IMG/VR virus record: IMGVR_UViG_2681813261_000016
DNA length: 10,334 bases
Direction: 5' to 3' (one strand)
Source: a virus
Taxonomy: Duplodnaviria > Heunggongvirae > Uroviricota > Caudoviricetes
How positions within the stretch are numbered: position 1 is the first letter of the stretch; each line of letters begins with the position of its first letter. This document shows, piece after piece, positions 3,101-3,634 of this stretch. The position numbers and the translations under genes were made by a program. The notes under the pieces were generated by a model, which was not told the DNA's origin, did no database searches, and saw only the letters and a program-made list of their open reading frames with translations.

Positions 3101-3634
3101 GCTGAAATTAACGCACTCATGACACGGATGGCGGCTGAAATGGGCTTAGGTGATGAACTAATCCGCCCCAGCATTGGTATTAAGCCGAAAATCATGATCA
3201 TTCTGGACAATGCAAACGGCAATGATGCTCGAACCGGTTACTTCATGGAGAACGGATACGACGATTTTAAGGCCAAGCTGTTGACGGCTGGAGATTTGCG
3301 CATGGGCGATCTCTATGTCACAGGCGTTTGCAAAAAGGTGAAAGACAAAGAAAAGGACTACACCAAAGACGAGATCGGCCAGTTCACCGACTTTATGCGT
3401 GAAGAGATCAATCTGGTACGTCCGACCTATGTGCTGACGTGTGGCAGTCGGGCAACGGCATTGTTTAACAACAAAAACAAGCCATCCGATTTAGTCGGTA
3501 GGAAGGAGTATCTTCCAGACCTTGACGTTACAGTCTTTTACGGGTTTAACCCCAACATTCTTTACTTCAGACCTGAAGAGGGAGAACGACTAGAAGCGAT
3601 ATTAGCCGACGTAGCAGAAACTATTAAGTCGTGA
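116..3634 (+). CDS. dnaE: DNA polymerase III alpha-subunit-like replicative polymerase (DnaE/PolC-type C-family) with a C-terminal UDG-fold domain
   Basis: 1172-aa ORF. Hallmark C-family motifs seen in the translation: [46 protein letters not shown], catalytic acidic cluster [28 protein letters not shown], and fingers motif [32 protein letters not shown]. The last ~150 aa resemble a family-4 UDG fold. RBS GAAAGG at 101-106, ATG at 116, TGA at 3632-3634. Confidence 0.9.
   Translation: [1172 protein letters not shown]

Follow-up and report, generated by a model that had tools for sequence, protein, structure and literature searches.

A DnaE-type polymerase of a phage-plasmid ends in the fold of family-4 uracil-DNA glycosylases, probably re-purposed as a non-catalytic module

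Why would a DNA polymerase of the C family end in a domain related to uracil-DNA glycosylases (UDGs), and what could such a tail do in replication? The question is raised by the dnaE-type gene (116..3634, + strand; 1172 amino acids and a stop codon in the open reading frame (ORF) list and its translation) of a 10,334-nucleotide stretch of the tailed-phage record IMGVR_UViG_2681813261_000016, the whole of which we refer to as the window. As the window (10.3 kb) shares 97% nucleotide identity with Escherichia phage PhiR41_1, 95% with phage Cyrano and 82% with Salmonella phage SSU5, it originates from an SSU5-type phage-plasmid of E. coli. A first-pass annotation, made from the letters alone, had read the end of the polymerase as a degenerate domain with the family-4 UDG fold, standing in place of the usual OB and tau-binding tail and acting perhaps as a non-catalytic DNA- or uracil-binding module. 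By fold and by profile, the C-terminal domain is a homologue of family-4 UDGs, far beyond chance. The canonical residues of these enzymes have been replaced throughout its clade, and its re-purposing as a non-catalytic contact module is the explanation towards which we lean.

Searched alone, the window protein matched TIGR00758 (UDG family 4) at E=1e-8, yet below the curated cut-off, and the archaeal type-4 UDG NCBIfam model at E=3e-6. With PF03167 it remained sub-threshold (15 bits for the full protein and 19.3 bits for the isolated tail; gathering score 24.3), and the four best matches of a single-sequence phmmer search against PDB were all family-4 UDGs, each of them marginal (E 0.05-0.2). 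Among the relatives of the protein, PF03167 scored above its gathering score in 7/7 scanned full-length sequences (28.7-51 bits) and TIGR00758 was matched by all 50 of the aligned ones (best E=1e-22). A family profile made from the window tail and 49 diverse relatives (50 sequences) found the solved family-4 UDGs 4ZBX (E=2e-23), 1L9G/1VK2 (2e-21) and 1UI0 (3e-17), while it matched UdgX at ~1e-14 and family 5 at just 0.22. The AlphaFold2 (AF2) model of residues 990-1172, built on the alignment of the 50 relatives, had a mean pLDDT of 95.4 and a pTM of 0.91. When this model was compared with PDB by Foldseek, ranks 1-36 were all family-4 UDG or UdgX (E 2e-11 to 1e-8, template modelling (TM) score 0.7-0.8), led by 1L9G, 1VK2, 1UI0 and 4ZBX (E~1e-11, TM 0.76-0.81) and followed by TDG/MUG and family 5. 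Among the viral models of BFVD it was matched best by phage UDGs and by fusions of UDG with PolA, the SP-15 polymerase being one of these. The domain also matched weakly phrog_17, annotated as 'DNA polymerase' (E=2e-7), as did 34/50 relatives. The family-4 fold proposed by the first-pass annotation is thereby borne out, and the significant match to the UDG superfamily by which it was to be judged is present, specifically to family 4 and together with a UDG fold.

The family-4-UDG-fold domain spans residues 990-1172 (3083..3631, + strand), as given by TIGR00758, the comparison of the profile with PDB, AF2 and Foldseek. It had been placed at 3188-3631, that is, from the first base of codon K1025 to the last sense base of the ORF (S1172), and all the peptides quoted for it are present in the translation. 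Its C-terminal end holds; its real start lies about 35 residues earlier, near residue 990 (nucleotide 3083), because the N-terminal helix at residues 992-1009 is confident in the AF2 model and belongs to the UDG fold.

We next consider the residues on which family-4 enzymes depend, the positions of their motifs being set by alignment to T. thermophilus (Tth) UDGa (1UI0) and their conservation being counted over 83 representative fused domains. Where family 4 has motif A, G-E-(A/G)-P-G, the window domain has L-D-N-A-N (residues 1030-1034; 3203..3217, + strand), aligned with the GEGPG that contains E41 and G42. The replacement of this motif had been noticed beforehand, although the 'DNANG' then given for it is off by one residue, the aligned stretch running from L1030 to N1034. 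Among the relatives the motif reads x-D(72/83)-[CAGS]-P(64/83)-[NTS]. The position of the uracil-recognising Asn (N80) is occupied in the window by G1070 (3323..3325, + strand) and by Asn in 0/83 relatives, nearly all of which have A, S, G or T. Motif B, H-P-(S/A) in family 4, is replaced by N1145-P-N1147 (3548..3556, + strand), aligned with H155-P-A and just as first annotated; the relatives have N (49), S (21), T (11) or H (1) at the H155 position. The Asn of motif 3 (N89) aligns with E1079. The equivalents of E41/G42/N80/H155 in the window are D/N/G/N.

The ligands of the iron-sulfur (Fe-S) cluster have fared similarly. The four-cysteine set had been called incomplete, and it is indeed not intact, but in the window it is altogether absent: Cys is found at none of the four 4Fe-4S ligand positions, the three covered columns being A, K and F, and the first cysteine of the CxxC is without a counterpart, the N-terminal helix holding no Cys. 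The only two cysteines of the domain (C1072 and C1109) sit away from the ligand positions. Around 40% of the relatives (34/83 each) keep Cys at two ligand positions, several of them also with the first CxxC cysteine. In Tth UDGa, H155S lowers k2 more than 1000-fold (3-4 orders of magnitude), N80A lowers k2/Km about 40-fold, N80 being responsible for uracil recognition, and substitutions of E41, E41D included, cause a large loss of activity (PMC5387724). The window domain has none of the features that define the family-4 enzyme, be it motif A, motif B, the Asn that reads uracil or the Fe-S ligands, and we infer from the alignment that uracil excision by the family-4 mechanism has been lost. Specific binding of uracil, the other half of the earlier suggestion, seems unlikely as well, because the window domain no longer has counterparts of the Asn and His with which Tth UDGa forms hydrogen bonds to uracil.

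Loss of these residues need not signify decay. The ratio of nonsynonymous to synonymous substitution rates (dN/dS) against SSU5 is 0.033 for residues 990-1172 and 0.038 for residues 1-989. Y1067, E1097 and P1103 are invariant in the relatives and D1031, T1069, K1073, G1110, G1128, D1137 and P1146 nearly so; position 1073 is basic (K/R) in 83/83 and a basic residue specific to the clade is found at position 1076 in 76/83. The derived yet conserved set of active-site residues is carried by the DnaE-attached clade as a whole and is not private to this phage, a clade-wide loss with which the suggestion of a non-catalytic module agrees. Because the active-site changes are common to the 83 relatives and accompanied by strong purifying selection, the domain appears to be conserved and re-purposed, retaining the UDG core fold and several of the family-4 loop residues. 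A decaying or non-functional domain was considered and rejected on account of the dN/dS of 0.03 and the clade-wide conservation. The word 'degenerate' is therefore apt for the chemistry of uracil excision and misleading for the domain as a whole, which is conserved and under selection.

The protein to which this domain is attached has the make-up of a DnaE-type polymerase (phrog_405 DNA polymerase, 1213 bits; TIGR00594, E=1e-189). It comprises a PHP domain at residues 6-176 (131..643, + strand; PF02811, E=6e-13), the Pol III alpha palm/NTPase core at residues 309-571 (1040..1828, + strand; PF07733, E=1e-73), a fingers domain at residues 574-740 (1835..2335, + strand; PF17657, E=3e-44) and the (HhH)2 or beta-binding-domain region at residues 866-955 (2711..2980, + strand; PF14579 (HHH_6), E=2e-16), the last part that is colinear with bacterial DnaE. 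The features of DnaE-type C-family membership are thus present, namely the PHP, palm, fingers and (HhH)2 domains (Pfam E 6e-13 to 1e-73) and the catalytic aspartates. The polymerase core looks active, as the motifs PDADLDF and KLDVLGL that contain these aspartates pair with PDIDTDF and KMDFLGL of T. aquaticus Pol III alpha (3E0D). Against E. coli Pol III alpha, the alignment covers alpha residues 742-896 and goes no further than ~896, where the HhH domain finishes; no OB-fold Pfam match was obtained in the polymerase at E<=1; and the gap between the HhH and UDG-like domains amounts to just 34 residues, predicted by AF2 as coil and one helix. Bacterial DnaE has its OB fold and tau-binding domain where this protein has the UDG-fold domain. 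The tail is not colinear with these two domains, as had been proposed from the letters, and a diverged OB/tau region was rejected as its identity, since no OB match exists, similarity to alpha stops after the HhH domain and the gap is only 34 residues long. Because it is without the OB and tau-binding domains and scores 679 bits with NF004226, below the cut-off of 1002, the protein is a C-family polymerase of DnaE type and not a DnaE1-type replicase.

The 34-residue linker (residues 956-989; 2981..3082, + strand) is itself conserved. It contains a motif at residues 966-977 (nucleotides 3011-3046) with the consensus R-x-x-D-Q-x-E-L-[ML]-P/G-G-L, the window copy of which includes Q970-A-E-L-M-G-N-L, and over the 83 relatives R966 is kept in 81, Q970 in 73, L973 in 65, M/L974 in 69 and P/G975 in 75. 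Residues 964-977 form a confident helix in the AF2 model (pLDDT ~87-92) and the dN/dS of the linker against SSU5 is 0.005. The window's QAELMGNL resembles QADMFGVL, which we take to be the internal beta-clamp-binding motif of E. coli Pol III alpha. The linker motif, predicted to be an ordered helix, is a candidate peptide for binding the clamp of the host.

To determine how widely such polymerases occur, residues 1007-1172 were searched against 1.84 billion representative proteins. The search returned 135 matches, including 39 clusters of proteins of at least 1000 residues with the UDG-like domain at the extreme C-terminus, and its weakest matches were ordinary free-standing family-4 UDGs with GEAPG and HP(A/S). 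In all of the seven full-length relatives scanned, the architecture is PHP-Pol3-fingers-HHH_6-UDG. Roughly 37 further clusters are ORFs of about 380-430 residues with the HhH and UDG-like domains only. By tblastn the tail, which shares 95.7% identity with dnaE from Y. pestis plasmids, was found in 976 PLSDB plasmids, most often those of Klebsiella (346), Escherichia (220), Acinetobacter (137), Enterobacter (91), Yersinia (63) and Salmonella (49). It was also present in 31 genomes of phages, each of 84-122 kb, a set with Pseudomonas, Rhizobium, Stenotrophomonas and Xanthomonas as hosts. In the A. baumannii plasmid NZ_CP043453 (182-5711), dnaE is split into a PHP ORF, two 'hypothetical' ORFs, a NUMOD4 homing-endonuclease ORF and a 421-residue HhH+UDG-like ORF, the last of which was already named 'uracil-DNA glycosylase family protein' by the NCBI pipeline. 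Inteins are present inside the dnaE of four other relatives.

The replication genes that accompany the polymerase were examined in two elements. Phage Cyrano encodes a helicase, primase, ligase, single-stranded DNA-binding protein (SSB) of gp32 type, FEN, epsilon-like exonuclease and RNase H, and the distant Pseudomonas phage nickie has genes for a helicase, primase, ligase, SSB and FEN. Neither the complete Cyrano record nor the examined 50-kb stretch of nickie has an annotated clamp, clamp loader or tau, and among the annotated genes of the whole Cyrano genome there is also none for an AP-endonuclease or Pol X. The gene order helicase-primase-ligase-cobT/cobS-dnaE-SSB-exonuclease-recA is common to Cyrano and nickie. 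The cobT/cobS-like pair lies directly upstream of the UDG-tailed dnaE (Cyrano 8495-11934; nickie 19981-23382) and presumably codes for a large vWA-type protein and an AAA+ ATPase. The cobT/cobS-dnaE linkage is conserved between enterobacterial SSU5-type elements and nickie.

How, then, might the tail serve the polymerase? We consider it probable, though well short of assured, that a family-4 UDG has been re-purposed as a non-catalytic module in contact with DNA, with the replisome or with both. As such an accessory of the replicase, the tail would keep the polymerase on the template strand or duplex that is its substrate, link it to other proteins of the replisome, or do both, and it would act in a replisome for which the phage provides the helicase, primase, ligase, epsilon-like exonuclease, RNase H, gp32-type SSB and FEN. 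The choice of DNA or protein as its partner is speculative, as is any effect on processivity. Contact with DNA is suggested by the residues conserved in the clade, which are mostly those that family-4 UDGs keep (Y1067-x-T1069, K1073, the G1110-S loop and P1146), with the basic position 1076 in addition. There is also precedent: N4-like PolA enzymes have family-4 UDG domains without conserved catalytic residues that were proposed as processivity modules (PMC10201439; PMC3201878), and in SP15-like PolA an active UDG domain engages the template ahead of the polymerase (bioRxiv 10.1101/2025.03.26.645540). Several points weigh against this explanation. The UDG-like domain (residues 1007-1172, nucleotides 3134-3631) is acidic, with an isoelectric point (pI) of 4.9 and a net charge of -5; the median pI of the fused family is 6.3, whereas 3/4 free-standing family-4 UDGs from the same search have a pI of 9-10. 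This charge argues mildly, and not decisively, against general DNA binding and, along with the separate HhH+UDG ORFs, seems to fit a role in protein contact at least as well. The absence of a clamp gene rests on annotation, and the beta clamp of the host could be used. Nor are missing canonical residues proof of inactivity, as the near-invariant D1031 might serve some chemistry, and E. coli MUG (family 2) is active with an Asn in motif A and no motif B His.

The acidic charge, unlike that of free UDGs, speaks for a tail that is mainly a protein-protein adaptor replacing the tau-binding tail, with little or no DNA contact of its own; candidate partners would be the phage DnaB-like helicase/primase, the gp32-like SSB, the epsilon-like exonuclease or the host beta clamp. 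The tail sits exactly at the place of the tau-binding domain in bacterial DnaE, the separate HhH+UDG-like ORF of many relatives must re-associate non-covalently with the polymerase core, and the AF2 model of residues 783-1172 (pTM 0.78) suggests that the HhH and UDG-like domains pack against each other in a fixed manner. However, the conserved residues are mostly those around the DNA-binding face of family 4 (Y-x-T, K1073, the G-S/T loop and the N-P loop), and an adaptor overlaps with the non-catalytic contact module instead of excluding it; taken as the main role, we find it possible but doubtful. That the tail is still a DNA glycosylase, or a covalent or tight lesion binder, using non-canonical residues on a possibly non-uracil substrate with a read-ahead function like that of SP15-like UDG-PolA, we hold to be unlikely. 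UDG families with Asn-based chemistry exist (MUG/TDG), as do active UDG domains fused to phage replicases; the pocket motifs are replaced in a conserved manner (D 72/83, P 64/83, N/S/T-P at motif B) and purifying selection is strong. Yet H155, N80 and E41/G42, whose substitutions had the strongest effects measured in family 4, are all changed, N89 aligns with a Glu, the Fe-S cluster is lost in the SSU5 clade, and Cyrano has no annotated AP-endonuclease or Pol X, unlike most SP15-like phages, which encode Pol X and a ligase. Residual or altered glycosylase activity as such we also judge unlikely. The chances are similarly slim that the tail has a conserved, non-canonical pocket (D1031, the N/S/T-P loop and K1073/K1076) with which it reads or processes template lesions, abasic sites or unusual bases before they reach the active site; if it did, this would be the first C-family replicase with a built-in module for base surveillance or excision, and UDG folds would have been recruited independently into viral replicases for a third time. 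Finally, the similarity itself might be spurious and the tail a diverged OB/tau region or an unrelated fold, in keeping with the sub-threshold Pfam scores of the window alone (15-19 bits vs 24.3) and the single-sequence PDB matches at E 0.05-0.2. With profile E-values of 1e-17 to 1e-23, relatives that pass the Pfam threshold, a confident model with a TM score of 0.8 and no alignment to alpha past the HhH domain, the probability of this is negligible.

Apart from the polymerase, the window carries part of a replication and recombination module, consisting of the dnaE-type gene and genes for a UvsY-like protein, a gp32-like SSB, a FEN-type 5'-3' exonuclease, an intein-containing RecA/UvsX-like recombinase and SPFH/stomatin-like membrane proteins. 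The recombinase gene (6611-8950, + strand; 779 residues) is split by an intein with a LAGLIDADG homing endonuclease, as judged from the Pfam matches Intein_splicing (residues 73-486) and LAGLIDADG_3; the long form is also found in Cyrano, and the SSU5 orthologue has 358 residues without an intein. Directly 3' of the dnaE stop codon lies a terminator-like hairpin (3641..3665, + strand) with a 10-bp stem, a 5-nucleotide loop and a T-rich tail, the only site observed in the terminator scan, against 0.2 expected, and also visible directly in the sequence. The short intergenic region in which it lies (3635-3759) is a variable spot, occupied by a hicAB toxin-antitoxin pair in Cyrano and by three other small genes in SSU5. 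The genes for SPFH/stomatin-like lipoproteins with which the window closes (9247-10076, + strand) have 75-77% nucleotide identity to genes of the unrelated lambdoid and P2-like phages phiP27 and P88, which suggests that they form a mobile cassette.

The fusion of a UDG to a C-family polymerase had been thought less commonly described, but a DnaE variant with a C-terminal UDG ('DnaEX') was already drawn in Figure 3 of Timinskas, Balvociute, Timinskas and Venclovas (Nucleic Acids Res 2014; PMC3919608), where strains of Y. pestis and S. enterica are described as having it as an additional polymerase; as far as that account goes, the architecture has been known since 2013/2014, and the presence of the tail in 976 PLSDB plasmids shows that it is widespread. 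Their variant has PHP, the Pol3 core, (HhH)2 and then an 'archaeal-type' UDG (PF03167) replacing the OB fold and C-terminal domain, an architecture identical to that of the window. The window gene belongs to the same family as the variant so depicted, on phage-plasmids of the SSU5/pMT1/pHCM2 type: its tail shares 95.7% identity with the Y. pestis plasmid dnaE and is present in plasmid records of Yersinia (63) and Salmonella (49). The sentence and figure panel found on the variant make no mention of motif loss, phage origin, spread in ~110-kb phages or split genes. Our literature search found no functional study of DnaE-UDG and no description of its clade-wide motif loss, phage origin, family breadth or split-gene forms, which are incremental additions of the present analysis. 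Around a thousand of the sequenced plasmids from enterobacteria and Acinetobacter, among them those of Y. pestis pMT1 type and Salmonella pHCM2 type, carry the UDG-tailed polymerase, which provides a natural experiment in how a C-family replicase can work without an OB fold and a tau-binding domain.

The tail is a parallel to the UDG domains on family-A phage polymerases and in the poxvirus replicase, and it bears on the use of UDG folds as replicase accessories for processivity, template handling, replisome coupling or lesion reading. With the family-4 UDGs of T. thermophilus (1UI0), T. maritima (1L9G/1VK2) and S. tokodaii (4ZBX) and with UdgX it has in common the fold, sequence homology and the motifs Y-x-T, the K of VKCRP, E-I-x-x-(I/L)-x-P, L-G and the P of motif B. 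It differs from them in being without motif A, the uracil-reading Asn, the motif B His and the Fe-S cysteines, in being acidic and not basic, and in being attached to a polymerase. N4-like PolA is likewise a phage replicase with a covalently joined UDG domain of family-4 type that has no conserved catalytic residues and for which a role in processivity was proposed (PMC10201439; PMC3201878). It is, however, a polymerase of family A and not C, its UDG domain is N-terminal instead of C-terminal, and that domain has helix and beta-hairpin deletions not seen in the window domain. In the SP15-like and SPO1-like UDG-PolA enzymes (YerA41 and phiLo, by cryo-electron microscopy) and in poxvirus D4(E4)-A20, a UDG-fold unit is also integral to a viral replicase and is placed on the template ahead of the polymerase. 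The UDG units in these systems are catalytically active, and in SP15-like phages UDG-PolA is linked to modified-thymidine genomes and to Pol X/ligase repair, whereas the tail of the window polymerase is without the catalytic residues.

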